Positions 6,706 to 61,100 of a DNA stretch of 64,000 nucleotides are shown piece after piece; the first letter of the stretch is position 1, and the number at the start of each line of letters is the position of its first letter. The position numbers and the translations under genes are program-made. This DNA is from an uncultured Bacteroidota bacterium (GTDB lineage Bacteria; Bacteroidota; Ignavibacteria; UBA10030; UBA6906): assembly GCA_963700635.1 (NCBI GenBank), contig CAVOYH010000001.1:448001-512000 (forward strand). The letters are read 5' to 3'. The notes beneath the pieces are model-generated. The model made no database searches. It was given only the letters and a program-made list of their open reading frames with translations, and was not told where the DNA came from.

Positions 6706-6711
6706 ACAGGT

Positions 6712-6930
6712 TTACCTCCCGAAAAGGATCGGAAGGAGGATATACGCCGCACTGAGACCGGAGATGATAAGGGTCACGAACATCCCAACAGTCCAGAAGA
6801 ACATGCGGAGATCCCCATCTTTTTGATTGGCTACGGCCAGAGCCCTTCGGAAGCACCATACCGAGGTGGCGAGCGTGACGAGGCTGATCGTTCCGAAGGC
6901 AAGCAGTAGTATGAGGTCAAGACGCGCCAT
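6712..6930 (-). CDS. Small 2-TM hypothetical membrane protein
   Basis: Two hydrophobic helices; ends 6 bp before the glycosidase start; ATG 6930 chosen. Confidence 0.6.
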   Translation of the reverse strand: MARLDLILLLAFGTISLVTLATSVWCFRRALAVANQKDGDLRMFFWTVGMFVTLIISGLSAAYILLPILFGR

Positions 6931-6973
6931 GAGAAAATATACAAAACGACGCCACAGTATCCAAGTGGGAGAG

Positions 6974-7002
6974 TTGCAGTTCATTTTGGCTCTGGGTATA
7001 TT
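6974..7002 (+). promoter_or_regulatory. Putative sigma70 promoter
   Basis: TTGCAG-N17-TATATT upstream of the receiver gene. Confidence 0.45.
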
Positions 7003-7030
7003 ACAGCAAAAATGTCAAATGCAGGAGTGA

Positions 7031-7417
7031 ATGATGTCGAAGGCACGTGATGGGGGGATCCTGATTGTTGAAGACGAGCATGAACTGCGCAGTCTCTTTG
7101 CACTGCTGTTGGAGGTTGAGGGATATACGGTATACCAGGCAGACGACGGAAAACAGGGTCTGGAAGTCCTGCGGGCTCATGCCGGGGATATCGGGTTGCT
7201 TATCACCGACCTTAATCTTCCCCAGCTTGCGGGTATAGACCTCATCAGTCACGCCAGAACGATCAACCCTTCTGTCAAGATTGTCGGGACCAGCGGTATG
7301 GGTGGAACCGCCATCCGTGAGATGGTTCTGAAGGCGGGGGCAGACGTTTTTTTGCCGAAGCCGTTTCAGCCACAGGAGGCGATCCGCATGCTCAACTCCA
7401 TCATGGGAAAACCATGA
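7031..7417 (+). CDS. Single-domain response regulator (CheY-like receiver)
   Basis: [16 protein letters not shown] (phospho-Asp), FLPKPF. Confidence 0.88.
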
Positions 7418-7827
7418 AATCCGCTACGGAGTATTTGTGGTTCAACACCCGCACAAAACGCGAGTATATCAACGTAACGGCTCAGGTCCAGGGTATTGTG
7501 GACAAAAGCGGCATCCGTGAAGGGATGGTGCTGGTATCTGCGATGCATATCACGGCAGGAGTGTATGTAAATGATGCCGAAGACGGCCTGATACAGGATA
7601 TCGACGAGTGGCTGGAACAGCTGGCCCCCTTTAACGAGAATTACCGCCATCATCGGACGGGCGAAACCAATGGTGATGCGCATCTCAAGAGTCTGCTGGT
7701 CCATCATGAAGTGATCCTGCCGGTTACCAAAGGTGCCCTGGATTTGGGCCCCTGGCAACAAGTGTATTATGCCGAGTTTGACGGCAAGCGGCGCAAACGT
7801 GTTATCGTCAAGGTTATGGGGGAATAG
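7414..7827 (+). CDS. yjbQ: YjbQ/UPF0047 family protein
   Basis: [37 protein letters not shown]. Confidence 0.88.
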
Positions 7828-10223: not shown

Positions 10224-11284
10224 GCGACGATCATCGGTTCCTGATCTTCCATACTGCATTTGTCGGAGATCTTGTTCTGACGCTGCCGGTGACACAAACG
10301 ATCCGTGCGGTCTGGCCGGAAGCATCTATCACGATTGTCGCCATTCCTGAAGCTGCCCGGGTTTTACGCGGACATCCGTCGATTGACCAGGTTATTGAAT
10401 ACGATAAAAAGGGCAGGGACAGAGGGTTGAAGGGATTCGTGCGACTTGTGCGCACGCTCTCTGCATTACACTTCGGATGTGCCGTGGTTCCACACCGTTC
10501 GATACGCAGCGCCCTTGCCGTCTGGTGCGCGCGCATTCCCCGCCGCATCGGGTTTTCCACAAGTGCAGGAAAGCTGCTGCTCACCGATGTGGTGCTGTAC
10601 GGATCCGGGATTCATGAAACCGAACGGAATCTGGCACTCCTTTCGCCGCTGGGAATCCTCACACGTGAACACGCCCGCCCGCGTCTCTTTCCCGCTGCCG
10701 ACGATGTGCGCAGTGTGGATGACCTGATTGCCGCGCATAGGCTGCGTGCGCCGGCTTTTCCTCAGGAGCTGATGGTGGCCCTGGCACCGGGATCCGTGTG
10801 GTTCACGAAACGGTGGCCGGAGCAACACTATGCGGAAGTTGTGCGTTTGCTTGCCGCCCGGGACGCGGGTGTCGTTCTGGTGGGCGGCGCGGATGACAGA
10901 GATCTCTGTGCCGGAATCGCCGAAAACACCGGCGGGGGGACTGCCGTGCTCAATGCAGCGGGCCGCCTGACTCTGTTGCAGTCCGCTGAACTTATGCGAC
11001 GCTGCCGCGTTGTGGTCACAAATGACAGTGCCCCCCTGCATCTGGCAGGCGCGGTCGGGACACCCGTTATTGCCCTCTTCGGCGCAACAGTTCCGGCTTT
11101 CGGGTTTGGCCCGCTGGGTCACCATGACCGTGTGCTCGAACTCCAGGGCCTGAGCTGCAGGCCATGTGCCATCCACGGCGGTCATCACTGTCCGATCGGG
11201 ACTTTTGTGTGTATGCGTAATCTGACTCCAGCGAGCGTCTTTGCGACCATCCAGGATTTCTTACAAGACCATCGGGAGGGTTAA
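10220..11284 (+). CDS. waaF: LPS heptosyltransferase II (GT9)
   Basis: VGDLVL, APGSVWFTKRWP, VTNDSAPLHLA, LSCRPC. Confidence 0.82.
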   Translation: MSDDHRFLIFHTAFVGDLVLTLPVTQTIRAVWPEASITIVAIPEAARVLRGHPSIDQVIEYDKKGRDRGLKGFVRLVRTLSALHFGCAVVPHRSIRSALAVWCARIPRRIGFSTSAGKLLLTDVVLYGSGIHETERNLALLSPLGILTREHARPRLFPAADDVRSVDDLIAAHRLRAPAFPQELMVALAPGSVWFTKRWPEQHYAEVVRLLAARDAGVVLVGGADDRDLCAGIAENTGGGTAVLNAAGRLTLLQSAELMRRCRVVVTNDSAPLHLAGAVGTPVIALFGATVPAFGFGPLGHHDRVLELQGLSCRPCAIHGGHHCPIGTFVCMRNLTPASVFATIQDFLQDHREG

Positions 11285-11950
11285 GTGGCCCTGACCATGA
11301 AGGTATCCCTCGCACAACCTGAAGACAAGGCACTCTTACTTGCCGCTGAAGTCATTCAGGCAGGTGGGGTGATCGTTTATCCGACGGAGACCGTATACGG
11401 TATTGGGACAAATGCCTGGGACGGGTCTGCGATTGCCAAGGTGCGGGCGCTCAAGCACCGCACGGACCAGAAGCCGATTCTGGTCATTGCCCGTTCGCAG
11501 GACCAGCTGCAGTCGTTAACGGACGAAATATCTCCTCTTGCGCAGCGCTTCATGGACGCATTCTGGCCCGGACCACTGACGCTGGTCTTCAGGGCGTCAA
11601 AGTCTGTTCCCGATCTCCTCTCACGGGGCACCGGAACGATCGGTGTGAGGATTCCCTCGAGTCCGGTCTGCCTCCGTTTGCTGGAACTTGCCGGATGTCC
11701 CCTGACATCCTCGAGTGCGAATATTTCGGGGCAGCCCCCGCTCCACACCGTAGCGGATATTGTACGCGCAATACCCAAGGGAGTGGATCTTATTCTTGAC
11801 GGGGGTCAGCTTCCACCGTCCGAGCCGTCTTCCGTACTCGATGTCACCGGCCCCACGCCGCGGCTTCTGAGAAAAGGAGCAATCGGTGAGGAGCTCTTGC
11901 GCAACGTGGACCCCCGCCTGGTGGTGGTGCAACCTCAGAAGAAGAGCTAG
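11285..11950 (+). CDS. tsaC: L-threonylcarbamoyladenylate synthase (YrdC/Sua5)
   Basis: YPTETVYGIG, FWPGPLT, IGVRIP, SSSANISG. Confidence 0.92.
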   Translation: MALTMKVSLAQPEDKALLLAAEVIQAGGVIVYPTETVYGIGTNAWDGSAIAKVRALKHRTDQKPILVIARSQDQLQSLTDEISPLAQRFMDAFWPGPLTLVFRASKSVPDLLSRGTGTIGVRIPSSPVCLRLLELAGCPLTSSSANISGQPPLHTVADIVRAIPKGVDLILDGGQLPPSEPSSVLDVTGPTPRLLRKGAIGEELLRNVDPRLVVVQPQKKS

Positions 11951-12004
11951 AAGGGGAGTGTAAACCGGGCCTGTCGCAGGATGTAGCGAGGGTTGCCGGT
12001 GGTC

Positions 12005-12033
12005 TTGCTTCCCGAGCGGATGTTTTGTATCTT
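12005..12033 (+). promoter_or_regulatory. Putative sigma70 promoter of tRNA-Arg
   Basis: TTGCTT-N17-TATCTT. Confidence 0.5.
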
Positions 12034-12089
12034 TTTTGGCAGTCTCGTGGGGGGGCCATCCACGCAGCATCCGGATGGGGGGCTGAGAC

Positions 12090-12166
12090 GCGCCTGTAGC
12101 TCAATTGGATAGAGTGTTGGCCTCCGGAGCCAAAGGTTTCGGGTTCGACTCCCGACAGGCGCACCA
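12090..12166 (+). tRNA. tRNA-Arg(CCG)
   Basis: Acceptor stem GCGCCTG/CAGGCGC, anticodon arm TTGGC-CT-CCG-GA-GCCAA, TTCGA T-loop, encoded CCA. Confidence 0.97.
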
Positions 12167-12204
12167 AGTACACTCTTCAGGCAGCACATACTCTACGGAT
12201 CCCT

Positions 12205-12894
12205 ATGCTCACACCCAAGAAAAAAATAGCCAAGCGCGAACACAGGCAGGACAAGCTGTATGCCTCGTACATGAAGGCCACGTCGTTTTACGAGGAAAAC
12301 AAGAAACTGATCAGCATCGGCATCACCGTGGTCGCCGCGGTCATTATTGCGCTGGTCATCTACTTCAAGAACCAGGGGGAAAACAACGAGCGTGCGACGA
12401 CACAGCTGGCGGCGATCCATCCGTTTTATGACAACGCGCAGTACCAGCAGGCAGTTGACGGTGTGCCGGAACGGAATATCGTCGGGCTGAAAGCTATTGT
12501 GGACAATTATGGTGGCACCCGGACTGGGGACATGGCTCGTTTTTACCTGGCGGATGCATACTTTCAGCTGGGCAAGTACACCGACGCATTAAATGAGTTT
12601 GACGACTGCGATCCATCGGCTGCATTGTTACAGGCCTCGCGTCTCGCCGGAATTGCCGCAAGTCACGAAGCGCTGGGTAATCACAAAGATGCAGGCGTCT
12701 ATTTTGAGAGGGCTGCGGGAAAAGAGCCCACTCCAGGGACGATTGCAGAATACCTCAACAATGCTGCGCGCAATTTTGCTCAGGCCGGAGAGAAGGAGCG
12801 TGCGCTCGAGATCTTACGACGTCTTCAGAAGAATCATCCCACGACGACCTACGGGCGGGAAGCGGAGCGCTTCATCTCCCAGCTCTCGGTATAG
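12205..12894 (+). CDS. Membrane-anchored TPR protein (YfgM-like)
   Basis: Single N-terminal TM followed by TPR-like helices (ARFYLADAYFQLGKY). Confidence 0.75.
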   Translation: MLTPKKKIAKREHRQDKLYASYMKATSFYEENKKLISIGITVVAAVIIALVIYFKNQGENNERATTQLAAIHPFYDNAQYQQAVDGVPERNIVGLKAIVDNYGGTRTGDMARFYLADAYFQLGKYTDALNEFDDCDPSAALLQASRLAGIAASHEALGNHKDAGVYFERAAGKEPTPGTIAEYLNNAARNFAQAGEKERALEILRRLQKNHPTTTYGREAERFISQLSV

Positions 12895-25238: not shown

Positions 25239-26408
25239 ATGGTCTCCTTCAGGTATCTGATAACCGGACTGCTGTTCATTTTTGCGGCGTCCTGTTTCTT
25301 TTCGATCGCCGTGAATTCCCTGGCGCTCGGCCTCCTCGCGCTCATCTGGGCTGCCGAGATGATCGCCGGGCGGAGATGGAGTGTCTCTCCCACCCCCTAC
25401 GACTGGTTCTTCCTTGCGTATGTCGCCGCCGAGTTACTGGCCACGCTCTTTTCGGCCAATCAGGCACAATCATTGCTCTTTTCGAAGCGCGTTTTGCTGA
25501 TCGGGGTTGTCTATGCCGTAGTCACCCATCTGCCAGAGGAACGGGATGTCCGTCGGTTTCTGGTCGTCCTGCTCGGAAGCGCTACGGTGGTGGCTACGAT
25601 CGGTGTCGCCAAGCTGATCCTTGCGGATCCGGCGGACGTGGTACGGCTTGGCATCTTTCAATTCTACATGACGACCTCCGAATTGATGATGATTGCGCTT
25701 CTGCTTGTCCTGCCCTTCGTGATCACTCCGGGGACGCCGCGCGGGGTCCGGATTGCGGGGATACTCGCGCTTATTCCGCTGGCGGTCGCACTCTATGCAA
25801 CGGTGACGCGCGGTGCATACCTTGCCGCAGCCGCGGGAGCGCTCTTTATTAGTGTGGTGAGGAACAGGAAGATGCTGCTGCCTCTTGCCGGTATCATCCT
25901 TCTTGTGATTCTCTTTGCGCCTCCCTATGTTGAACAACGACTCCAGAGTATCGTGGATCCCGGGCACCCGGAAAACGCCACCCGGATTGCACTCTGGCAG
26001 ACGGGATGGACGATCTTCAAGCACTATCCGGTGTTCGGCGTGGGTGACATCGACCTCAGGGAAGTGTACGATGCGTACACGGAAGTTGAGAACCCTGAAC
26101 ACCACGGACACCTTCACAGCGTTCCCCTGCAGATACTCGTGACACTCGGCGCCGTCGGGTTTATCGCTCTTTATGCCCTGTTCTTCCGGATCGCGGTGGT
26201 GGAATGGAAGACATACCGGCAGGTGAAGGAAGACTGGTTCCGGGGTTCTGTTGCCCTGGGTGCCCTCGGCGTGTTTGTGGGCTTTCACGTTATGGGACTT
26301 ACCGAATGGAGTTTCGGGGATCAGGAAGTCGTGATTCTGTTCTGGATATCGGTGGGTCTCTCTCTCGCGGCTGGACGTTTGCCTGCGCACACGAACGACA
26401 AGGAATAA
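25239..26408 (+). CDS. O-antigen ligase family protein
   Basis: Multi-TM; TRGAY, RIALW, PVFGVG, HLHS. Confidence 0.8.
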   Translation: MVSFRYLITGLLFIFAASCFFSIAVNSLALGLLALIWAAEMIAGRRWSVSPTPYDWFFLAYVAAELLATLFSANQAQSLLFSKRVLLIGVVYAVVTHLPEERDVRRFLVVLLGSATVVATIGVAKLILADPADVVRLGIFQFYMTTSELMMIALLLVLPFVITPGTPRGVRIAGILALIPLAVALYATVTRGAYLAAAAGALFISVVRNRKMLLPLAGIILLVILFAPPYVEQRLQSIVDPGHPENATRIALWQTGWTIFKHYPVFGVGDIDLREVYDAYTEVENPEHHGHLHSVPLQILVTLGAVGFIALYALFFRIAVVEWKTYRQVKEDWFRGSVALGALGVFVGFHVMGLTEWSFGDQEVVILFWISVGLSLAAGRLPAHTNDKE

Positions 26409-34623: not shown

Positions 34624-34658
34624 TAGTATACTCAGAACATTGGAGAAGAGCAAGCAGC

Positions 34659-35078
34659 GTGCCGGATCTGTTTGTCAATGCAAGGTTGACCATTCCTTCA
34701 GCCGAAATCCGCTTCCGTTTTGCACGGAGTGGAGGTCCGGGTGGCCAGAATGTGAACAAGGTTGAAAGCAGGGTAGAAGTTCTCTTCGACGTGCAAAACT
34801 CTGCGGCATTGTCAGACCTCCAGCGGCACCGCCTCCTTGCTGTATTACGCTCACGGCTGGATTCAAAGGGAGTGTTGCACATCATTGTTCAGGACTCCCG
34901 GAGTCAGTACCAGAACCGGGAAAGTGCGCTGGTCCGGCTGGCAGAACTCCTGCGTGCGGCGCTCGTTCCGCGCAAAAAACGCGTCCCCACCAAACCCTCC
35001 CGCGGTTCCCGGGAGAGAAGAATTACTACGAAGCGCAAACGGGGGGAGCAGAAACGGGCGCGCAGGTCCCTCGAATAA
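34659..35078 (+). CDS. arfB: Alternative ribosome rescue peptidyl-tRNA hydrolase
   Basis: RSGGPGGQNVNKV, RSQYQNR, basic C-terminal tail; GTG 34659. Confidence 0.93.
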   Translation: MPDLFVNARLTIPSAEIRFRFARSGGPGGQNVNKVESRVEVLFDVQNSAALSDLQRHRLLAVLRSRLDSKGVLHIIVQDSRSQYQNRESALVRLAELLRAALVPRKKRVPTKPSRGSRERRITTKRKRGEQKRARRSLE

Positions 35079-50357: not shown

Positions 50358-50396
50358 TGTGGGATTTGCCTACAGGGGGTGTTGGGATTCCCCCCA
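50358..50396 (+). promoter_or_regulatory. Putative tandem enhancer (UAS) sites for a sigma54 activator
   Basis: TGTGGGATTTGCCTACA and TGTTGGGATTCCCCCCA, 22 bp apart, about 90-125 bp upstream of the -24/-12 element. Confidence 0.55.
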
Positions 50397-50481
50397 CCTT
50401 TCGAGTGCTGGGAACTGGTCAGCACAATGAGATTCACCGTAACTCGTTATGGAATAACGTTTATCAATATACCCTGTGTCC

Positions 50482-50497
50482 GGGCACGGAGCTTGCA
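50482..50497 (+). promoter_or_regulatory. sigma54 (-24/-12) promoter
   Basis: GGGCACGGAGCTTGCA = GG-N10-GC, close to TGGCACG-N4-TTGC(A/T). Confidence 0.75.
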
Positions 50498-50551
50498 GTG
50501 TTGAGCCAGGAAGGGTCGAAATCTTTTTCACATTTCTGGAAAGGAACTCCA

Positions 50552-50785
50552 ATGTTCGAATTGTCGGATCCCCGCACATGGCAGATCATCACCAACCTGC
50601 TGCTCGTAACTGTCGCCCTTGTGGCTGCGACGTACATCGGCATCGGTGTGTACAAACAATCCCGTGCGAAGTCACGACGGGTATTTCACGCCCATCCGGA
50701 CCATGACACGCACACGCTGATCCTCCCCGACCTCGGCATTACCATGGCCGATGGTGGTGAAAAGCTTGACGATAAAAAATCATGA
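50552..50785 (+). CDS. 77-aa single-TM protein with C-terminal GITMADGG motif
   Basis: AAGGA RBS, TM helix, basic patch; motif shared with two downstream proteins. Confidence 0.8.
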   Translation: MFELSDPRTWQIITNLLLVTVALVAATYIGIGVYKQSRAKSRRVFHAHPDHDTHTLILPDLGITMADGGEKLDDKKS

Positions 50786-50819
50786 ACTCCTATACCGGCG
50801 TCCAGTAGAGGCGATCACC

Positions 50820-51794
50820 ATGCGATGTCCATTTCTGCGGGAAGTACGAGTCAAATCCTGCCGCGCCTCGAGCTGCCGAAAGATGATAGCTCAGGTGTCG
50901 GGTCAGCCTGCAATGGAACGATGTGTCACTCCGGCGTATCTGGAATGTCCGGAGGCGAAGCCCCTTCTCGAAAAGAACGTCACGCTCGACCGGTGTCCGT
51001 ACCTTCATGAGTCCCTCATGCAGTATTGTAGCGCGGCGTCCCAGACAAAATATATTCCGTACAGCGAAGCAATCCTGTCCCAGTGTGGTACGGATAGCCA
51101 CCGTTACTGTTATCTCTTCCTGGCATTCGCACAACCCGACCGCCATAAGGAAATCTCAGCTGTGGACACCGTTCACCCGGAATTGTCCACACCCGGAAGG
51201 GAAGTTGATGTGGATGGGATTGGTGTGCGAACGGATCTTCTGTACACTCCGAACCATATGTGGGCGGATATAGGCGAGGACAATACGGTGCATGTCGGCA
51301 TAGATGCGCTGCTGGCGGGACTGCTCGGAGACGCGGACCAAATTACGTTTGTTACGGTGCGGGGAAAACAACGGCCGACCGTGGTGTTCAGCGTGAATGG
51401 AACCGACCTGCCGGTGATGTTTCCCTACAAAATGTCCATCACTGCAGTGAACACATCCCTGCGCGCACATCCCTCAGACCTGTTCGCGGATCCATATACC
51501 CATGGCTGGCTGTTCGAGGGGACCGAGCTGGAAGTGCCGGCGTCTTCGGAAGAGACGCCAGGACACCCCCTCTTGCTTCCCGGATCCAGGGCGCCGGTGT
51601 GGATGCGCAATGAACTCCGGCACGTTGCGAAAGTGGTTCATGAACTGTCCCATGCGTCTGACAGTTCAGGCGTGGTTCTTATGGCTGATGGTGGCAATCC
51701 GCAACCCGGCGTCGCACAACACCTGAAACGGAACGAACTGTTGCATCTGTTCAACGATATGTTCTCGCCTCTGGCGGGATGGAGGAATGTGTAG
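50820..51794 (+). CDS. GcvH-like protein with duplicated N-terminal Cys4 module, no lipoyl-Lys
   Basis: LLYTPNHMW...VHVGID...AVN...DPYTHGWL (H-protein fold); LMADGG near C-terminus. Confidence 0.8.
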   Translation: MRCPFLREVRVKSCRASSCRKMIAQVSGQPAMERCVTPAYLECPEAKPLLEKNVTLDRCPYLHESLMQYCSAASQTKYIPYSEAILSQCGTDSHRYCYLFLAFAQPDRHKEISAVDTVHPELSTPGREVDVDGIGVRTDLLYTPNHMWADIGEDNTVHVGIDALLAGLLGDADQITFVTVRGKQRPTVVFSVNGTDLPVMFPYKMSITAVNTSLRAHPSDLFADPYTHGWLFEGTELEVPASSEETPGHPLLLPGSRAPVWMRNELRHVAKVVHELSHASDSSGVVLMADGGNPQPGVAQHLKRNELLHLFNDMFSPLAGWRNV

Positions 51795-52381
51795 TGAAAC
51801 AGCGAGGTGTTATAGTATTTCTCGCAGGAGTGGTCGCGTCGCTTGCGCTGGGCTGGTTCGTTTTTCCGATGGCCCTGTACCGTACCGAACTCCAGCCTAT
51901 CGGGTTCAACCACGTGGTCCATACGGGGGAACAGAACGGGATGACGTGTGACATGTGCCATGAGTTCACCGAAGAAGGTAGATTCACGGGCATTCCCCGC
52001 ACGGCAAAATGCGCGGAGTGTCACAGCACAGCGCTCGGAACGACGGAGATCGAGAAGCAACTTATCGAAGAATTTATCACCCCGGAGAAGGAGATTCCCT
52101 GGAAAGTATATTCCCGGCAGCCGGACAATGCCCATTTTTCGCATGCAAGCCATGTGACCCGGGCAGAGGTGCCGTGCGAGGAATGCCACGGCCCGCACGG
52201 CGCCAGTGCCGAATTGCCTCCCTACCAGCGTAACCGAATCACCGGGTACAGCAGGGATATCTGGGGGAGGAATATCTCCGGCATTCCGTCAGAACCATGG
52301 CAGGGAATGAAAATGGATCGTTGCGTGCGGTGCCATGCCGATCGTAACAGAGTGGATGGTTGTGTTGCCTGTCACAAGTAA
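51794..52381 (+). CDS. qrcA: Membrane-anchored pentaheme cytochrome c, QrcA-like
   Basis: Five CxxCH; GWFVFP...QPIGFNH, YSRQPDN, GYSRDIWG; GTG after GGAGG. Confidence 0.8.
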   Translation: MKQRGVIVFLAGVVASLALGWFVFPMALYRTELQPIGFNHVVHTGEQNGMTCDMCHEFTEEGRFTGIPRTAKCAECHSTALGTTEIEKQLIEEFITPEKEIPWKVYSRQPDNAHFSHASHVTRAEVPCEECHGPHGASAELPPYQRNRITGYSRDIWGRNISGIPSEPWQGMKMDRCVRCHADRNRVDGCVACHK

Positions 52382-52393
52382 TCGAAAGACACA

Positions 52394-54544
52394 ATGAAAC
52401 TCACGCGGAGAGATGTTCTACGTTTGGCCGGAGGTTCGGTAGTCGGGGCCATGTTTACGCCTGTACCCTGGAAGTTGCTGGATGACAGCTCCATATGGAC
52501 GCAGAACTGGTCGCTGGTGCCGCCTCTTCCGCGGGGCCCCATGAGCACCCGCTATTCCCACTGCAATCTATGTCCGGCCGGCTGCTCGCTCAAGGCCCAT
52601 TGTGTCAACGGCATACCAGTACGTCTGGCGGGTGTTCCGAACGGTGTTCTGAAAAACGGTACGTTGTGTGCCGTGGGGCTTGCCGGTCATCATGTGGCGT
52701 ACCACCCGCTGAGGTTGTCCGGGCCCCATACATTCACGGGGAAAGCCGACGGCAGTTTTCTACTGCCCGTTACCATAGATACCCTCGTGGCAAATCTGGT
52801 TCCAAAATACCGCCGCGCGATGTCTTCCTCGTCTGCCGGTGTCGTCGCGGTCCTTGACCAACGCCCCGGCCGGGCCATGTCGCGCAGATATCAGGAGTTT
52901 CTGAGCGCATTCCCCGGGAGTATGTACATCGTCCCGCCTTCGGGTGAGGATGGTATGCTCCGCACCATGCAGGGGCTTTCCACTGAACCGTGCGCATCCC
53001 TGGGGTTTGATTTTGAGCACTCCCGTACCATACTCAGTATCGGTGCACCACTTCTGGACGGATGGGGCGTCCCCGAGCGGATGCAGGCGCTGTTTGCGGA
53101 CCAAACGTCTTCGGGCAGAACCCTTATTCAGGTCGAAAGTTCACAGTCCAGAACCGCACGCGCTGCGGCGATCTGGCTGCCGGTCGTCCCTGGAGCGGAA
53201 GCGGCACTGGTCTTGAGTCTGGCCAACGTTATCGTCAGAGAGGGACTCTATCCCAAAGAGGTTGAGCGTACGATAATAGACTTCTCCAGGTACCGGGACC
53301 TGGTATTACGATATCATCCTCATCCGGTCTCTTCCCTTGCCGGTGTGAGTCCGGGCGCGATTGTCGAAACAGCCCGGGCTATTGCTTCCTCCCCCTCGAT
53401 TGTGATCGCCGGGGCCGATCCTGCCGGAGGCCCCATGGCGCAAGCGACAGAGATCCTTGTAGCCGGATTGAATCTGCTTCTCGGAAATCCTGGAAGGAAA
53501 GGTGGCATTGTCTATCGCCGTGAAACGCCGGACGCATCTGCCAGCGGCGTGCCGGAGATCGCCCTTCACCAGATTCCAGACCACTCGATCGAACTCCTGA
53601 TTATGGACGGAGCAGAAGCCGGCCAGACTTTCCCGTCGTCATTGTTAAAACGGAAGATGGTGCGTGATGGCGGGACGGTGGTGCTTCTCTCCCCGCATCT
53701 GTCACCACGCTCCGCATCGGCGGATTATCTGGTCTCCACACCCGCGCCCTTTGAATCCTGGGACGAAACCCCAGCGTCCCCGGGGTCCCCGGTTGCGTCT
53801 TTCGGCGTTTCGATGCCGCTGATGGCTCCGCGGACGAGCAGTGTGGAGGCAATAAGTTTTCTCTCTCTGCTTTCCAGTGCAATCGGCCATGTTTCAGAGG
53901 GGGCAGGTTCGCTGGAGCAGTTGCTCCGCCGGAAGGCAGATGCCATTACGGCCGCTGGCCGGGGTATGGCGTACCCGCCGGACGGATCCGGTGGCACCCC
54001 CGTCTCTTCATTTGCTGATGCGGAGGCACTGTGGGAAATCCTCAAAGAGGGCGGAAACTGGGTGGATGAACCCGCTCCTCCGGCAAAACGCGGACAGTTC
54101 AAGATTCTCGGGTCTCTGACCGACGACACCCTTACCTCCGCCGCGCATCTGCACCAGCCGGAGGGGGGGTCCATCACGTTGACACCCTTTGGAGTGCGCG
54201 CCGCCCTTGCCAGTGGCGCGGTGTCTCCGATTCTCAGCAAAATTTTCCAGGAATCAGATCTCCGCAATAGCGGCGGCACTGTGCTGATAAACCCGGCGAC
54301 GGCGTCACAGTTCGGGTTGCTGGACGGGGACCGTGCCGCGATCCGGACCAGGAACGGAAGTATGCGTGTGCGTGTGTTGCTGGATCCCGCCGTCAGACCA
54401 AACATGCTCCATGCCGCAGTAGGTCCATTGCCGAATGGAACCCCCGACGCCGACGAATTAACTGGAGAGGGTGTGCTGGCGCTCTGTGTCGTACAGAACG
54501 ACGGGACCTGGCGTTTCACTGATGTGACGATTGAGAAGGCTTAA
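52394..54544 (+). CDS. qrcB: Molybdopterin oxidoreductase-like subunit, QrcB-like
   Basis: Tat motif TRRDVL; TPVPWKLLDDSSIWTQNW; CNLCPAGC...C; C-terminal molybdopterin-dinucleotide-binding-like domain. Confidence 0.8.
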   Translation: MKLTRRDVLRLAGGSVVGAMFTPVPWKLLDDSSIWTQNWSLVPPLPRGPMSTRYSHCNLCPAGCSLKAHCVNGIPVRLAGVPNGVLKNGTLCAVGLAGHHVAYHPLRLSGPHTFTGKADGSFLLPVTIDTLVANLVPKYRRAMSSSSAGVVAVLDQRPGRAMSRRYQEFLSAFPGSMYIVPPSGEDGMLRTMQGLSTEPCASLGFDFEHSRTILSIGAPLLDGWGVPERMQALFADQTSSGRTLIQVESSQSRTARAAAIWLPVVPGAEAALVLSLANVIVREGLYPKEVERTIIDFSRYRDLVLRYHPHPVSSLAGVSPGAIVETARAIASSPSIVIAGADPAGGPMAQATEILVAGLNLLLGNPGRKGGIVYRRETPDASASGVPEIALHQIPDHSIELLIMDGAEAGQTFPSSLLKRKMVRDGGTVVLLSPHLSPRSASADYLVSTPAPFESWDETPASPGSPVASFGVSMPLMAPRTSSVEAISFLSLLSSAIGHVSEGAGSLEQLLRRKADAITAAGRGMAYPPDGSGGTPVSSFADAEALWEILKEGGNWVDEPAPPAKRGQFKILGSLTDDTLTSAAHLHQPEGGSITLTPFGVRAALASGAVSPILSKIFQESDLRNSGGTVLINPATASQFGLLDGDRAAIRTRNGSMRVRVLLDPAVRPNMLHAAVGPLPNGTPDADELTGEGVLALCVVQNDGTWRFTDVTIEKA

Positions 54545-54548
54545 CAGT

Positions 54549-55298
54549 ATGGAACACGGAGCAGTAAAGAAGTCGCGGTACGGAATGCTTATCGACCTTG
54601 ACCGCTGTAATGGGTGCGGGGCGTGTATGATTGCCTGTGCTGTGGAAAACAATGTAGCCCCTGCCGAAAACAAAGCAACCGCGCGCACCGGTGTCACCTG
54701 GCTGCGCGTCGCCCCTATGACCAACGGGGCGGAATTTCCTGCGACGGACACCGTGTACGTGCCGATGCCCTGCCAGCAATGCGAAAAGGACACTCCCTGT
54801 GTGGCAGTGTGCCCCCAGAATGCTGTTGACCTCGATCCGGTAACCGGGATAGTCGGACAGGTGCCGCAACGTTGCCTCGGCTGCCGGTATTGTATGACGG
54901 CATGTCCCTATCATGCACGGTACTTCAACTGGTGGGATCCGCGATGGCCGGAAGGGATGGAACAAACCCTGAACCCCGATGTGGCTCCCCGCATGCGGGG
55001 TGTGGTGGAGAAATGTAATTTCTGCCATGGCAGGTTACATGCAGCGCGTGCCAAGGCTGCAGCGGACGGGCGAGCGGAGATCGCGGCGACAGACTATGTG
55101 CCCGCGTGTGTAGAAGCCTGCCCGGGCAAAGCGATCAGCTTTGGAGATCTGGATGATGCCTCGGGTGAATTGGCTCATGCCATCAGGCATCCCCACGTAT
55201 TCCGCTTTCTCGTAAAACTCGGGACGGAACCGAAAGTGTACTATCGCTCCTCCAAACAGTGGGTGCGGGACAAAGTGGCATCGTTACAAACGGTCTGA
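54549..55298 (+). CDS. qrcC: Fe-S electron-transfer subunit, QrcC/NrfC-like
   Basis: IDLDRCNGCGAC, CQQC...PCVAVCP, CLGCRYCMTACPY, EKCNFC. Confidence 0.82.
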   Translation: MEHGAVKKSRYGMLIDLDRCNGCGACMIACAVENNVAPAENKATARTGVTWLRVAPMTNGAEFPATDTVYVPMPCQQCEKDTPCVAVCPQNAVDLDPVTGIVGQVPQRCLGCRYCMTACPYHARYFNWWDPRWPEGMEQTLNPDVAPRMRGVVEKCNFCHGRLHAARAKAAADGRAEIAATDYVPACVEACPGKAISFGDLDDASGELAHAIRHPHVFRFLVKLGTEPKVYYRSSKQWVRDKVASLQTV

Positions 55299-55321
55299 CG
55301 ACGACAAATAGGAGTTGCCTC

Positions 55322-56554
55322 ATGGATAAGCAGTTCATACCGCGCGGTCTGCGGCGCACCACGTTTGGAAAGTTTTTGATCTGGCTTGTTCCCTGGATTT
55401 TGCTCCTCGGATTCGGGCTCTATGCGATTTATCTCTGTCTGGCCGAAGGGCTGTTTCACACCAATATGGACAACCGTTTCGCGTTCGGACTCTGGATCTA
55501 CCTTGATCTGACGATCATCGCCCTGGGCGCAGGAGCCTTTTTCACCGGGTTTCTTCTGTATATTCTGCGGCGTGAGGAACTCCGGGCTGTCATTAACAGT
55601 GCGGTGGTGCTCGGGCTTATTTGTTACAGCGGCGCCGTTGCCGTTCTTATGGTGGATGTGGGTCAGCCCCTCAGGGCCTGGTTTACGTTCTGGCACCCGA
55701 ACACTCATTCCATGCTGACCGAGGTGACCTTCTGTCTGACGTGTTACCTCACGGTGCTTCTGATCGAGTATCTTCCGGTTGTGCTCAAGAACCGGAAGCT
55801 CCGGCAGATTCCCCGCTTTCTGGTCTTTGAGTTTCAACTCCATAAAGTTATGCCTGTTCTTGCCGGCGTAGGCGCGTTTCTTTCCTTTTTCCATCAGGGC
55901 TCATTGGGCGGGTTGTATGGCGTCTTGCAGGGAAGACCGTTTGCCTATCGCGAAGCCCTGGGAATCTGGCCTTCCACGTTCTACCTTTTTGTCCTTTCCG
56001 CCGCAGCCGCAGGTCCAAGCTTTGTGCTCATTACTACCTGGCTGGTCCAGCGGATATCGGGGAAGACGCTCGTCAAACCGGAGGTCTTCCAGTTGTTGGG
56101 AAAAGTGTCGGGCATGCTTCTTATCGTCTACATCTTCGCGAAGGCCATCGATACATTCGTCTGGATCAACTATACATCACCAAGCGCAGGTTTTGCCGCA
56201 TTTGCCTTCTACCAGGAAGGTTCGTTCGGTACGTGGATTCTTGTCCTCGAGATTGTCTTTCTCGGACTCATTCCGGCAGTGATGTTGTTGAACAGGAAGA
56301 TGCGTGGCAGACCGGCCGTGCTGGTCAGTGCGGCATTTCTGGCCTGCTGCGGGGTCATGCTGAACAGATTTGTTTTGACGATACAAACGCTCGCGCTTCC
56401 CACGCTTCCGTTCGACACGGTCCTTAGTTATGCTCCGAGTTGGCAGGAGGTGGCCGCCTTCCTTGCGGTCGTCGCGTACGGGGTGCTGCTCTACTCTTTG
56501 TCATACCGGTACCTGACATTGTTCCCGCAGGAAAAAGATATCAGACAACATTGA
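55322..56554 (+). CDS. qrcD: NrfD/PsrC family membrane subunit, QrcD-like
   Basis: TNMDNRFAFGLWI, DVGQPLR, SMLTEV, HQGSLGG, LNRF. Confidence 0.82.
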   Translation: MDKQFIPRGLRRTTFGKFLIWLVPWILLLGFGLYAIYLCLAEGLFHTNMDNRFAFGLWIYLDLTIIALGAGAFFTGFLLYILRREELRAVINSAVVLGLICYSGAVAVLMVDVGQPLRAWFTFWHPNTHSMLTEVTFCLTCYLTVLLIEYLPVVLKNRKLRQIPRFLVFEFQLHKVMPVLAGVGAFLSFFHQGSLGGLYGVLQGRPFAYREALGIWPSTFYLFVLSAAAAGPSFVLITTWLVQRISGKTLVKPEVFQLLGKVSGMLLIVYIFAKAIDTFVWINYTSPSAGFAAFAFYQEGSFGTWILVLEIVFLGLIPAVMLLNRKMRGRPAVLVSAAFLACCGVMLNRFVLTIQTLALPTLPFDTVLSYAPSWQEVAAFLAVVAYGVLLYSLSYRYLTLFPQEKDIRQH

Positions 56555-56566
56555 TGGAGGTATATC

Positions 56567-57400
56567 GTGTTTCCATGGATCTATGAATTCCGCTGGAGTC
56601 TCGGGCATCTTCTGTTTCTGGGAGTGTTCTTCGCCGTTGCCGGTGTTGTGGTCTCCACCCTGGTGCTCGCGCTGCGCAGAGCACAGAAGTCCATGGCGGA
56701 CGGGCGTCACGAAGTGCTTCAATGGAAGACGGAGTTCGAAGACCTGCCTCTGGCCAGCCGGGCATGCAGGCATCAGCTTACAGGAGAAATGAAAGAGCGC
56801 ACGTGCCACCACGAATTTGACTGTGCCACCTGCGCGACCCATTCCAGGCTGCTCATGCTCAATACTCCGGCACTATGTACTGCTGTCCCCGGGGAAGACC
56901 TTTTTGGGCTGGCTATGCCAATGGACCGGTACTATCACCGGGGGCATACCTGGGTGAAACCCGAAGAAGATGGAACGTACACGATAGGGCTTGATGCGTT
57001 TGGTACCCGGATGATCGGTGTTCCCGATGCTGTTGATCTTCCGGACGTGGGGACCAGACTGAGAGCAAATGGTACCGGCTGGAAGATGCGCAAGCGTGGT
57101 TCTTTATTGCGTGTACTGGCGGCCGTTGATGGGGTCGTTGTGGAACAGGGTGGACCGCAAAAAGGGTGGTATGTGCGGATTCGTCCGGAAGGGTCCGAAC
57201 CGCAATTCCGTCATCTCCTGCGGGGAGAAGAAATCCGGCCCTGGCTGATGCGCGAACTGGAGAGGCTTCAATTTGCCCTTCCTGCTGACGGCATTGGCAT
57301 GAGTCTGGCAGATGGCGGCGAGCTCATGCCGGATGCGTGGAAACATGCGCCGGAAGTCGACTGGGAAGGCGTCTGGGGCGCAATGCTCCTCCAGGCGTAA
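56567..57400 (+). CDS. Membrane-anchored GcvH-like protein with Cys/His cluster, no lipoyl-Lys
   Basis: TM; CRH...C...CATC; YYHRGHTWV...IGLDAF...LP.VG...GW; GMSLADGG. Confidence 0.8.
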   Translation: MFPWIYEFRWSLGHLLFLGVFFAVAGVVVSTLVLALRRAQKSMADGRHEVLQWKTEFEDLPLASRACRHQLTGEMKERTCHHEFDCATCATHSRLLMLNTPALCTAVPGEDLFGLAMPMDRYYHRGHTWVKPEEDGTYTIGLDAFGTRMIGVPDAVDLPDVGTRLRANGTGWKMRKRGSLLRVLAAVDGVVVEQGGPQKGWYVRIRPEGSEPQFRHLLRGEEIRPWLMRELERLQFALPADGIGMSLADGGELMPDAWKHAPEVDWEGVWGAMLLQA

Positions 57401-57410
57401 ACCGTCCGGA

Positions 57411-58775
57411 TCATGGCCGCGGGAGATTGTGCTTTTTAAGCCGGTCATACAGAGTTGACCGATCAATGCCGAGGATTCCCGCGGCCTCAGAAATGTTCCC
57501 CCTGGTACGTTTGAGCGTAGCTGTAATGATGTGGTTCTCGGCCTGTTCAAGTGTCATGTCTGCCGGGAGACTCCACTCCTTATCATCCTGAACCCGCGTG
57601 GACCCGATAAACCCGCAGTCCTCCTCAGTGATGACCTTCGTTCTTGTTGTTACGATAGCCCGCTCGATCGCATTTTCGAGTTCCCGGACATTTCCCGGCC
57701 AGTCGTAGTTCATCAGGACTCGCAGTGCGCCCTCTGAGATAGCGGTGACCTCTTTGCCGAGTTCGTGCACAAGCCGTTCGATGAATGTTTCGACAAGCAG
57801 GGGAATGTCTTCCCTCCGCTCGCGGAGCGGGGGAATGTTGATGCTGATGACGTTGAGCCGGTAGAACAGATCATCGCGGAATGTGCCTTCCCGCACCGAA
57901 CGTTCGAGATCGACATTGGTTGCGGCAATAACCCGGACGTCCACGTGCAGTTCTTCCGTCCCGCCCACCCTGTAGAATGTCCTTTCCTGAAGAATACGCA
58001 ACAGATCCATCTGCAGCTTCGGCGAGATATCCCCGATCTCATCAAGGAAGATCGTCCCGCCGTGTGCCATCTCGAATTTTCCCTTCCGGTTCGCCACCGC
58101 TCCGGTGAACGCCCCCTTCTCGTGGCCAAAGAGTTCTGATTCGAGGAGTGTTTCTGCGAGCGCGGCACAGGAGACTCCTATAAACGGCTTGTTTGCGCGG
58201 TCCCCGGAATAGTGGATGGCGCGGGCAACAAGTTCCTTCCCGGTGCCACTTTCTCCCTGTATGAGTACCGTGCTGCGCAGACTTGCCACGTCGCGCACAA
58301 GCTCGAAGAGTTTCATCATTGCCGGGCTTTTGCTGATGATATCGTGCAGCTGGTACTGCTTTGTGAGCTTTTTGCGCAGGATAAGATTTTCCCGTTGCAG
58401 GTTTTTCACCTTGATGATGCGCCTGACAAGCAGCGAGATTTCTTCGGGGTTACAGGGTTTGACGATATACTCCTGTGCTCCCTCCTTCATTGCGGTGATT
58501 GCGGTATCGACGGTCGCGTACGCCGTCACGATGATGATGGGCGCGTCCGGATGGAGCTTGCGGACTTCCATCATGGTTTCAATCCCATCGATACCACCCG
58601 GCATCTTAAGATCCACGAAATAGATTGCGTAGTCGACGGATCGTGCCTTTTGGAGGGCCTCTGCTCCTGATGTTGCGGTTTCCACCGTATATCCATCTTC
58701 ACGGAGCCAGGCAGCGAGGGATTCGCGCATCACTTCTTCATCATCGACGACAAGAATCGGCCAGTGTGTTGTCAT
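57411..58775 (-). CDS. sigma54-dependent response regulator (NtrC/AtoC family)
   Basis: Receiver domain, GESGTGKE, GAFTGA, FLDEIG, WPGNVRELEN, Fis-type HTH. Confidence 0.95.
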   Translation of the reverse strand: MTTHWPILVVDDEEVMRESLAAWLREDGYTVETATSGAEALQKARSVDYAIYFVDLKMPGGIDGIETMMEVRKLHPDAPIIIVTAYATVDTAITAMKEGAQEYIVKPCNPEEISLLVRRIIKVKNLQRENLILRKKLTKQYQLHDIISKSPAMMKLFELVRDVASLRSTVLIQGESGTGKELVARAIHYSGDRANKPFIGVSCAALAETLLESELFGHEKGAFTGAVANRKGKFEMAHGGTIFLDEIGDISPKLQMDLLRILQERTFYRVGGTEELHVDVRVIAATNVDLERSVREGTFRDDLFYRLNVISINIPPLRERREDIPLLVETFIERLVHELGKEVTAISEGALRVLMNYDWPGNVRELENAIERAIVTTRTKVITEEDCGFIGSTRVQDDKEWSLPADMTLEQAENHIITATLKRTRGNISEAAGILGIDRSTLYDRLKKHNLPRP

Positions 58776-59353
58776 AGAGTCTTTCGTGCGGCATCCGAAC
58801 GGTCGTCCGTCAGCCGCATATGTGGTTTTCGTTCTTCAAACAGCGTGGCACAGGTTGCGCAGAGGTCCGGCCCCTTCGCGTCCACGTGCCGTACAGTATT
58901 GGAAAGAGACATGGGGCATCTGCTATCGGTGCAATGTATCAACCCGAAGGTATGGCCGATCTCATGGACGGCCTCCTTGACAGCCCGCGATTGCAGAAGT
59001 CCGGCATCAGGGGGGAGTCCGTAGAATTCCTGCCTGAGGCGCGCCAGCGAAATCGCAGCTGTCGGGCCGTTGAGTTGGGCCTGGCCCAGAACAAAACTCA
59101 GCATGGGAATAAAGAGATCCCTTTCGGTGACACCCAGTACCCTGATGGTGGAACCGGACACCTGCTCCAGGAGATCGCGCAGGATCAGCACGGAGCTGTA
59201 CTGGCCCCGTTGTGCATCGTACGCAAACGAAGGATCCGGGAGTGCGGGAAGCACACGCACAGGAAACTGGAATGCGCGTTGAAGGCCGCGTGTCACGGAA
59301 TCAAGAATGGTATCTTCCACGGATCCCAACGCAGCCAGGACGATGGCGTTCAT
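58772..59353 (-). CDS. Archaemetzincin (peptidase M54) zinc protease
   Basis: HEIGHTFGLIHC-x4-CPM...CATC; RGQY, FVLG; ATGA overlaps with both neighbours. Confidence 0.92.
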   Translation of the reverse strand: MNAIVLAALGSVEDTILDSVTRGLQRAFQFPVRVLPALPDPSFAYDAQRGQYSSVLILRDLLEQVSGSTIRVLGVTERDLFIPMLSFVLGQAQLNGPTAAISLARLRQEFYGLPPDAGLLQSRAVKEAVHEIGHTFGLIHCTDSRCPMSLSNTVRHVDAKGPDLCATCATLFEERKPHMRLTDDRSDAARKTL

Positions 59354-60978
59354 CCCGTATCGCTCACGGGAGCCGCCGTTTCCTCTTCCATGATCGGCAT
59401 GGTTACCCGGAATGTGGTGCCTTCTCCGACCTTCGTGTTCACGTCGATGTCCCCCCCATGCGAGCGTACAATGCCGTACACGACGGCCAGTCCAAGCCCG
59501 ACTCCTTTTCCCTCTCCCTTTGTGGTGAAAAACGGCGAAAAGAGATTTGCCATGTGTTCGGGCTGGATTCCGTCGCCGGAATCGTGCACTTCGAGGACGA
59601 GTGATTTTCCGGAAGTCGAAAGATTTGTCGTAATGCGTACACGTGCATCCGGGTGCCCCTGGGCAGCCTCCGCGCCGTTCATCACCAGGTTGATCAACAC
59701 CTGCTGCATCTGTGACGCGTCGCAATGAATGTTGGGAAGCCGGTCATCAAGCTGCAGGTCCATCTCGACGTTCATCAGTTTTAGCTTATGCCCGATCAGC
59801 GTTACCGTTGTCGAGACAACCGAGTTGAAATTGACATTCGCCCGCTGGTGCGGTTTGGAGCGGCGCGAGAATGAGAGGAGATCCTGCACGATTCTGCCTA
59901 CCCGTGTGGTCTCGCTGACGACCTGCGCAAGATACTTGCGGAATTCACCCAGCCGTGGTGGGGGGATGCCGTCATCCTTGACAATCCGCTGCATCAGCAT
60001 GGAAAGATTCAACACTCCGGAGAGTGGGTTGTTGATTTCGTGTGCGACGCTGGCGGAAAGCTGGCCGAGGGAAGCCAGACGGTCGCTGTGCAGCAGTTTC
60101 TGGTGCGCAGCCTTAAGTTGCTCGGTCCGCTCTTCAACTTTGATCTCAAGGTTCTGGGCCAGGCTGTTGAGTTGCTCAATGGCTGCCTTCAGCCGGAGTC
60201 GCATGATGTCGAATGACCTGGCAAGTTCCCCGAGTTCTTCGCTTGAACTGATCGTCACCTGCGTGTCCAGATTCATTGCGCTCACGGCCCGCGTGGCCTC
60301 AATCAACTGACGGATGGGTGCCACAACATACCGGCGGGTGAAGACCACGATGAACAGGACCAGCGATACGGACAGTGCAAAGGAGATGAGCAGGACGCGC
60401 GTCTGGATTGCGATGATCTCTTTGTCAACGGCCGACAGATCCAGTGCAACGTCGATGACACCGAGGACATTCATTGATGCGGGATGCGCATGGCAGCCCG
60501 CATTGCTGCACGCGGGTTCGTTATAGACCGGTGTGACGATCCCCAGGGTCCGTTTTCCCGTCGCGTCACGGAATACGCGGGCGCGTGACGGCACATCAAC
60601 CTTGACCAGCGGGCGGTCCGTGGCATGGCAGATGGAACATGCCTCCGCGTCCTTGTCGACACTTCCGGAATCACCGGACGCGGTTGAGAACATCACGCGG
60701 CCCTCTTTGTTGTAGATCCGGATCCGGTTGATCCCCTGTTTGAGGGCGATGGTTTGCATGATTTCGTACGCCGATTCGCGCTGGTCGGCCAGCATGGCAT
60801 GCCACGTGGCACTCGCAATACTCCCGGAAAGCTGGTCCGCCCCAATTATCATCGTATCCAGAAGTTGTGACTCCTGCGATTTCATGTGCACATATCCCGC
60901 GGCCAACCCTACGAGCGTCACCAGGAGGAGCAGCGGAATCATCAACTGAAGCCATAACTTTCGTGGTAGAAAATGCAT
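59350..60978 (-). CDS. Sensor histidine kinase with periplasmic heme c-binding domain and HAMP
   Basis: 2 TMs; CSICH and CSNAGCH; HEINNPL, N-box, FFTTK, GLGL. Confidence 0.92.
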   Translation of the reverse strand: MHFLPRKLWLQLMIPLLLLVTLVGLAAGYVHMKSQESQLLDTMIIGADQLSGSIASATWHAMLADQRESAYEIMQTIALKQGINRIRIYNKEGRVMFSTASGDSGSVDKDAEACSICHATDRPLVKVDVPSRARVFRDATGKRTLGIVTPVYNEPACSNAGCHAHPASMNVLGVIDVALDLSAVDKEIIAIQTRVLLISFALSVSLVLFIVVFTRRYVVAPIRQLIEATRAVSAMNLDTQVTISSSEELGELARSFDIMRLRLKAAIEQLNSLAQNLEIKVEERTEQLKAAHQKLLHSDRLASLGQLSASVAHEINNPLSGVLNLSMLMQRIVKDDGIPPPRLGEFRKYLAQVVSETTRVGRIVQDLLSFSRRSKPHQRANVNFNSVVSTTVTLIGHKLKLMNVEMDLQLDDRLPNIHCDASQMQQVLINLVMNGAEAAQGHPDARVRITTNLSTSGKSLVLEVHDSGDGIQPEHMANLFSPFFTTKGEGKGVGLGLAVVYGIVRSHGGDIDVNTKVGEGTTFRVTMPIMEEETAAPVSDTG

Positions 60979-61057
60979 GGAGAGCGACCTCAGGAGGCGG
61001 GAAGAGTTATTATCTAAAAGGAATGGAACGTTCTGCGAAACCGGCTTTTCTCTACAC

Positions 61058-61086
61058 AATGTACGGAAGAGGTTTTGGATATTCAA
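61058..61086 (-). promoter_or_regulatory. Putative sigma70 promoter of kinase-protease-regulator operon
   Basis: TTGAAT-N17-TACATT on minus strand. Confidence 0.45.
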
Positions 61087-61100
61087 CTTCAATCGGGTTC

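Follow-up and report, generated by a model that had tools for sequence, protein, structure and literature searches.

The QrcABCD complex, the type I cytochrome c3:menaquinone oxidoreductase of Desulfovibrio (DVU0692-0695), is usually regarded as an enzyme of sulfate reducers with four subunits. Here we describe a locus from an uncultured Bacteroidota bacterium (GenBank assembly GCA_963700635.1, contig CAVOYH010000001.1) in which the genes for a Qrc-type complex are accompanied by three further genes and by a regulatory triad consisting of a sensor kinase, an archaemetzincin and a sigma-54 activator. The locus lies in a stretch of 64,000 nucleotides (positions 448,001 to 512,000 of the contig), which was analysed as a whole and is referred to below as the window. 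In PMC8076601, QrcD is reported from 35 Deltaproteobacteria species only, QrcA of D. vulgaris is listed as a hexahaem protein (Table 1 of that paper) and the NrfD family, of which QrcD is a member, is described as carrying no redox cofactor. Archaemetzincins (peptidase family M54) have solved structures and unknown natural substrates; the M. kandleri enzyme showed no detectable activity (PMC3427221). None of the components, Qrc, NtrC-type systems, archaemetzincins or H-protein folds, is new by itself, but their conserved combination is, as far as we have found, undescribed. The literature searched, including term look-ups in PMC8076601, PMC10564751, PMC6303296, PMC4641369 and PMC11841059, yielded no description of the combined system, of the accessory genes or of a link to M54, in line with a preliminary description of this DNA whose author knew of none.

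The ten genes form two convergent operons, pep-H1-qrcABCD-H2 on the plus strand and kinase-M54-activator on the minus strand (coordinates are those of the window). The first operon opens with pep (50552-50785, +), an open reading frame (ORF) for a 77-amino-acid peptide with a single predicted transmembrane (TM) helix at residues 16-34, and with H1 (50820-51794, +; alternative ATG at 50751), which encodes a soluble, cysteine-rich protein with the fold of the H protein GcvH. These are followed by genes for a QrcA-type membrane-anchored cytochrome c (51779-52381, +), a QrcB-type molybdopterin-oxidoreductase-like subunit with the twin-arginine leader MKLTRRDVL (52394-54544, +), a QrcC-type four-cluster Fe-S subunit (54531-55298, +) and QrcD, an NrfD-family integral membrane quinone-site subunit (55259-56554, +). 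The operon closes with H2 (56567-57400, +; PF01597, 33.4 bits), whose product combines a TM helix, a cysteine cluster, a GcvH fold, an LADGG loop and a 26-residue tail. Facing it are the genes for the NtrC-type activator (57411-58775, -), the archaemetzincin (58772-59353, -) and the sensor histidine kinase (59350-61092, -; likely start at the ATG at 60978), with an overlap of 4 nt at both junctions. All genes listed in the preliminary description were recovered with the order and overlaps given there.

Like the Desulfovibrio genes, those of the window follow the order A-B-C-D within one operon and specify a QrcB with a twin-arginine translocation (Tat) leader, a four-cluster QrcC and an NrfD-family QrcD. 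QrcA (NF041781, 213.4 bits; cut-off 180) and QrcD (NF041784, 575.3 bits; cut-off 570) score above the NCBIfam equivalog cut-offs, QrcD by a narrow margin. Other features set the window complex apart and count against its being a Qrc of the Desulfovibrio kind. QrcB (257.8 bits; cut-off 440) and QrcC (345.8 bits; cut-off 400) have the respective Qrc family as their best-scoring match, yet remain below threshold. QrcA has five CXXCH motifs (at 57, 78, 133, 182 and 195) and no other haem motif, as opposed to six haems in D. vulgaris. The source genome, which encodes other multihaem cytochromes, has no dsrA, so the physiological donor and the role of the complex may differ from those of Desulfovibrio Qrc. 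The window operon moreover contains pep, H1 and H2, and has a dedicated kinase, M54 protease and activator.

The additional genes are inherited together with the Qrc core. A profile made from H2 found relatives in 362 species-level genomes. The best 80 of these are all labelled metagenome-assembled genomes (MAGs) of Bacteroidota, Ignavibacteriota, Kryptoniota, KSB1 or Acidobacteriota, bar two, one being a contig labelled Synechococcus and the other a plain "bacterium". The former (L031, a 4.3-kb contig of a Synechococcus sp. MAG) holds QrcD and H2 and is probably a binning error. Gene neighbourhoods were compared by tblastn over 81 loci, 21 of which had short flanks and were left out of the upstream count. 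The complete series pep-H1-qrcABCD precedes H2 in 58 of the 60 loci with at least 6.6 kb of upstream sequence; one exception lacks H1 (L061) and the other pep (L074). Kinase, M54 and activator genes are all found within 10 kb in 28 of 41 loci with both flanks available, and part of the triad in 3 more. Where a complete adjacent triad is missing, an M54 gene was present elsewhere in the genome in all 10 cases tested, and 4 of the first 5 had the orthologous kinase-M54-activator triad. In a sample of 151 genomes from the window's order, 38 have an H2 ortholog, and an M54 gene lies within 10 kb of it in 29 (read by eye). The ten genes, whose unity the preliminary description had proposed, are therefore one conserved unit with components that co-occur elsewhere, and hundreds of uncultured bacteria from soils and sediments have retained the set. 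At one locus (L014) an ORF for a 376-amino-acid transposase-like protein (11146-12276) lies between H2 and the activator gene, the triad being some 2 kb further off, and two GcvH-like genes of the cassette type described below, together with an FeS gene, are found divergently upstream of pep.

A sequence of the sigma-54 -24/-12 type, GGGCACGGAGCTTGCA (50482-50497, +), was identified by pattern matching in front of the first operon. It agrees with TGGCAC-N5-TTGCA at 10 of the 11 specified positions and ends 55 nt ahead of the pep ATG. The window contains no copy of the strict pattern TGGCAC-N5-TTGC, and a looser degenerate sigma-54 pattern does no better than chance there; GGCAC-N5-TTGC is found three times, against 0.83 expected. 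The other two matches to this last pattern are at 25463-25476 (+) and 34650-34663 (-). Of 63 related loci, 31 have a site upstream of pep that agrees at 9 or more of the 11 positions, compared with 27 of 2000 random windows of 260 nt, and the distances of these sites from pep are constant within clades. The predicted promoter that had been placed before the peptide gene thus appears in the window and in many of its relatives. About 100 nt upstream a 13-nt motif (TGTnGGnAwTnCC-like) stands twice in direct orientation, at 50358-50370 and 50380-50392 (+); an upstream alignment shows the pair to be conserved between the window and the two closest loci (L003 and L005), and it may serve as a binding site for the activator.

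The triad includes the parts of a two-component system. The kinase comprises a first TM helix (residues 50-68), a periplasmic domain, a second TM helix (233-251), HAMP, HisKA and HATPase domains, and it carries two putative haem-c motifs, CSICH at 152 and CSNAGCH at 195, between the two TM helices. Among its orthologs CX4CH is present in 41 of 41 and CXXCH in 34 of 41. The activator contains a receiver domain (REC; PF00072), an AAA+ domain with GAFTGA (PF00158, 239 bits) and a Fis-type helix-turn-helix (PF02954), and its orthologs are 69-87% identical across loci. Assignment of the third protein to the archaemetzincins is based on NF033823 (160.1 bits; cut-off 145) and on a profile match to structure 2x7m (E 2.7e-41). 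Its sequence HEIGHTFGLIHC-x4-C-x-M...CATC agrees with the family motif HEXXHXXGXXHCX4CXM...CXXC (HEIGHTFGLIHCTDSRCPM...CATC in the window protein), and this metal motif is complete in all 44 orthologs. Eight long M54 relatives, singletons joining M54 to a kinase, an activator or HypF, were considered as possible fusions and set aside as most likely run-on gene calls. The M54-HypF singleton (P0126) probably reflects an adjacency of the two genes such as that seen in an acidobacterial MAG (CO124, genes 1834-1837; PMC10564751), where a cassette-type M54, activator and kinase adjoin HypF.

H1 and H2 share the GcvH fold. H1 gives a weak but significant match to GCV_H (PF01597, 23.2 bits), and its profile retrieves GcvH chains from the PDB at 1.5e-10. 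GcvH alone matched H1 in that search, and the cysteine-rich N-terminus had no PDB profile match; a search of the ESM Atlas with H1 returned only "hypothetical protein" clusters with GCV_H. For the H2 model, the best Foldseek matches are GcvH structures (E about 1e-7, TM-score to target 0.66-0.79), with GcvH-L of Streptococcus pyogenes (5a35) at rank 22. When aligned to the genome's own GcvH (IEAVKAV), both proteins have Gly in the column of the lipoyl-lysine, and both score far below the gcvH NCBIfam cut-offs; H1 and H2, as read from their sequences, are not lipoate carriers. They further differ from GcvH and GcvH-L in having an added TM helix or cysteine clusters and a tail with the sequence DGG. 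H1 consists of the cysteine-rich N-terminus, the GcvH fold, a long helix, an ADGG loop and C-terminal helices, with invariant cysteines C3, C14, C35, C43, C59, C70, C89 and C97. In H2 a TM helix (15-33) is followed by invariant C67, C80, C86 and C89, spaced C-x12-C-x5-C-x2-C. The two lysine-less, cysteine-bearing GcvH folds of the preliminary description are thereby borne out, with eight and four invariant cysteines respectively. A tree did not resolve how H1 and H2 are related to each other or to the two GcvH-like types of the cassette dealt with below.

The three accessory proteins also have a short motif in common. The strings LGITMADGGE in pep, GVVLMADGGN in H1 and IGMSLADGGE in H2 were found exactly as given in the preliminary description and conform to [LM]-A-D-G-G. 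This pattern occurs in 15 proteins of a crude proteome of the source genome (3570 ORFs, 1.30 million residues), among them the three window neighbours and five sigma-54 activators, and its sharing by the three neighbours exceeds chance. At related loci the motif of pep is ADGG in 63 of 65 cases and TDGG in the remaining 2, that of H2 is ADGG in 81 of 82 (the sole exception being a truncated sequence), and in H1 an x-DGG appears in 63 of 65, 45 of them reading ADGG. The conservation claimed for the motif stands, therefore, but its strict form is x-D-G-G rather than ADGG. A pep profile retrieved 460 clusters at 50% identity (E<=1e-3), all of 70-160 residues, and 136 of the 150 best relatives contain TMADGG, followed by a tail of variable length (4 to 34 residues after GG). 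In the AlphaFold models the motif occupies the sole poorly predicted loop of both H1 and H2, between the long helix that follows the GcvH fold and the C-terminal helices. The mean pLDDT (a predicted score on the local distance difference test) for H2 is 85, falling to 53 at residues 241-250, and that for H1 drops below 50 at 284-291. TM positions, flanking charges and the "NO_SP" annotations published for orthologs (PMC10564751) place the motif-bearing parts on the probable cytoplasmic side. In a search for fused forms, no H2 relative longer than 485 amino acids was found.

Two other explanations of the motif were examined. Conjugation of the Pup type, through GGE, was rejected: many pep proteins have K or some other residue directly behind GG, and no homolog ends there. 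Mimicry of the stretch F-E-[LM]-A-D-G-G-T that precedes Walker B in sigma-54 activators was set aside, given that the window activator has AHGG and that the D varies among its orthologs. Five other activators of the source genome carry [LM]ADGG just ahead of Walker B, possibly by chance.

Part of the evidence on the DGG proteins comes from a second kind of locus. Some Acidobacteriota have a second M54 gene, which belongs to a single operon encoding a TM-anchored GcvH-like protein (with AADGG), an FeS protein, NrfD, a kinase, an activator and M54. When every fourth of 80 paralogous M54 sites was inspected, kinase-activator-M54 was found at all 20. GcvH-like, FeS and NrfD genes lie upstream at 12 of the 17 sites with usable flank; one of the others has FeS and NrfD only, two have the GcvH-like gene only and two have none. 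The 26 cassette GcvH-like ORFs examined are of two kinds, one TM-anchored and without a cysteine cluster, the other soluble with the H2 spacing C-x12-C-x5-C-x2-C. Both kinds end in hydrophobic-x-D-G-G, all 26 having an x-[D/E]-G-G tail (EGG in two, both at L117). The cassette thus resembles the Qrc unit in these proteins, in the families of its activator and M54 and in its kinases, which have both CXXCH and CX4CH in 13 of 13 cases. It differs from the Qrc unit in the absence of QrcA, QrcB and pep, in an FeS protein with a C-terminal TM helix in place of a Tat leader, and in the order kinase-activator-M54 within one operon with the structural genes. Its proteases form a separate clade: in the M54 tree a branch with 100/99 support separates the 25 rows of cassette type from the 30 of Qrc type. 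Rows from the FCB group (Bacteroidota and Ignavibacteriota relatives) and from Acidobacteriota occur on both sides of it, so each module type has long kept its own protease. The Qrc unit is the Qrc-bearing sister of this smaller, commoner FeS/NrfD cassette, which runs GcvH-like, FeS, NrfD, GcvH-like, kinase, activator, M54, and we read it as a derived form of the latter, a point absent from the preliminary description.

A further NrfD cluster of the source genome lies outside the window (G000:C4:628000-647000, locus L090). It encodes a Tat-FeS protein, NrfD, a multihaem cytochrome and a paralogous haem-motif kinase (CYACH/CWSAPCH), the ORF of which stops before the HATPase domain, and then two proteins in which a receiver domain is fused to a GcvH fold (6299-7564 and 7483-8313 of L090), one of them TM-anchored; a sigma-54 activator is divergently encoded. 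Neither fusion has DGG: one is without the tail and the other has DGD at the corresponding position. No M54 gene is present at this locus, and the source genome has only one.

On balance we lean towards reading the ten genes as a self-regulating Qrc-type unit with an adaptor arm that operates through DGG. The first operon would be read from the sigma-54 promoter and its Qrc-type complex would pass electrons from periplasmic cytochrome c to menaquinone, while pep, H1 and H2, on the cytoplasmic side, would each display an exposed hydrophobic-x-D-G-G loop. The second operon would supply a periplasmic two-haem sensor kinase, the archaemetzincin and an NtrC-type activator, which would fire the pep promoter according to a periplasmic or quinone-linked redox state, most likely under anoxia. 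We are confident of the outline of an operon under two-component sigma-54 control. Judging from the two putative haem-c motifs between its TM helices, the kinase may sense Qrc activity; this input, the action of the activator on the pep promoter and every physical contact within the unit are proposed from sequence. The GcvH-fold proteins would serve the NrfD-type module as an adaptor or signalling arm in the cytoplasm, with the cysteine clusters as input, in the manner of the receiver domain in the REC-GcvH fusions. The DGG loop is probably a common handle by which the accessory proteins meet one shared partner. The co-inherited M54 protease is our favoured, if tentative, candidate for that partner, and would act by limited cleavage, turnover or tight docking, a contact through which the regulator would be tied to how much of the complex is present or to its state. 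It is more doubtful that bacterial archaemetzincins have their natural substrates, or tight ligands, in the x-D-G-G loops carried by the peptide and the GcvH-fold proteins. Cutting or capture of the loops, if gated by the redox state of the cysteine clusters, would add a proteolytic feedback arm to a two-component system.

Two described arrangements might work in a comparable way. The sigma-54 activator PspF is controlled by a membrane-associated partner, PspA, and a cytoplasm-side, membrane-linked protein of the window could similarly report the energetic state of the membrane to an AAA+ activator. There is no homology between PspF/PspA's mode of partnership and the window proteins, and contact of H1, H2 or pep with the activator is only putative. 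In the CysO/Mec+ and QbsE/QbsD pairs, carriers with a GG tail are processed by a clustered metalloprotease; if the DGG loops are cleaved, the window would offer a parallel in having Gly-Gly followed by extra residues and a zinc protease nearby. Here, however, the fold is GcvH-like and not beta-grasp, the locus has no gene for an E1-like adenylating enzyme, and both H1 and H2 show conservation beyond the GG.

Transcript data for one ortholog, on the L037 contig, are contained in the supplementary tables of PMC10564751, where a negative log2 fold change denotes higher expression under anoxia. Values of -4.38 for qrcD (adjusted P 0.018), -4.73 for H1 (0.003) and -4.69 for the kinase (0.004) were recorded, along with -4.11 (0.058) for the gene in the QrcB position; the main text of that source mentions qrcABCD only. 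In the same tables the cassette-type activator of CO124 (-4.18, adjusted P 5.7e-6) and kinase (-4.24) are likewise higher under anoxia.

A number of results weigh against the self-regulating unit or against the place of M54 in it. Expression of the L037 ortholog is very low (about 1 read per kilobase per million mapped reads, RPKM, or less); pep, qrcA, qrcC and the activator change with the same sign but not significantly, and M54 and H2 have no reads (PMC10564751). No triad gene lies within 10 kb in 10 of the 41 loci with both flanks. Since M54 is found in 117 of the 151 genomes of the window's order, co-occurrence at the level of genomes is weak evidence. None of the 150 best pep relatives terminates at GG. 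The tails of H1 and H2 beyond DGG are conserved and predicted to be helical, that of H2 measuring exactly 26 residues past GG in 81 of 81 complete homologs, so they look structural and not like a discarded propeptide. Finally, in an Ignavibacteriaceae MAG (L004, 11036-14094) the kinase gene is followed directly by the activator gene with no M54 gene between them, one M54 gene being present elsewhere in the genome, and the motif is nevertheless kept on pep, H1 (as TLMDGG) and H2.

The last two observations would be expected if pep, H1 and H2 were permanent subunits of Qrc on its cytoplasmic side, with DGG loops that join the parts or dock on QrcD, and if M54 served the two-component system (for instance by processing the kinase or the activator) independently of the motif. 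Such an arrangement would also fit the position of the three genes in the structural and not the regulatory operon, and the TM helices of pep and H2 could pack against QrcD. We nonetheless consider it unlikely. In the minimal cassette, too, the GcvH-like proteins bear this DGG tail, and an M54 from that module's clade invariably accompanies them; neither the H1 nor the H2 model has a part less ordered than the loop; and the fusion of GcvH folds to receiver domains in the source genome speaks for signalling over scaffolding. The association of M54 with the DGG loops, a link resting on co-occurrence, draws support from the joint inheritance seen in two module types and from the contrast with the REC-GcvH proteins; L004 and the conserved tails weaken it. 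The preliminary description had tied the accessory proteins to the protease or regulator through the motif. This is supported indirectly, in that GcvH folds with DGG travel with an own-clade M54 in both module types and that the REC-GcvH proteins of the source genome, at a locus without M54, lack DGG; retention of all three motifs in the absence of the triad M54, and tails that are conserved and predicted to fold, do not agree with it.

It is improbable that H1 and H2 are instead redox carriers, whose cysteine clusters would bind Fe-S and exchange electrons on the cytoplasmic side while Qrc acted as a transmembrane link like Hmc or Tmc. The four invariant cysteines of H2, in a spacing common to the soluble GcvH-like protein of the cassette, and the eight of H1 would suit this role, but the NrfD family to which QrcD belongs has no redox cofactor (PMC8076601), leaving no evident route for electrons across the membrane. 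Moreover, the TM-anchored GcvH-like proteins of the cassette keep the DGG tail though they have no cysteine cluster. That the three proteins are maturation or insertion chaperones, absent from the finished enzyme and later removed by M54, is very improbable, since, for all their strict co-inheritance with the structural genes, their exposed loops and a protease always present in the same genome, proteins of this kind are retained in the cassette, whose module is far simpler and has two subunits, and insertion of periplasmic cofactors (haem c, Tat-exported Fe-S) is not known to need cytoplasmic GcvH-fold proteins.

In at least 362 species-level genomes, then, Qrc is accompanied by three further conserved proteins and by a regulator of its own. 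These additions, and the occurrence of the complex in a host without dsrA (at least in the case of the window genome), imply that the textbook account of the composition, distribution and role of Qrc is incomplete. The system also names candidate partners for the archaemetzincins. If the proposed explanation is true, a lipoate-free GcvH fold joined to receiver domains or cysteine clusters would constitute a new kind of signalling module on quinone-linked respiratory complexes, and the action of M54 on DGG loops would give an NrfD-type quinone module a new means of informing a sigma-54 activator of its state.

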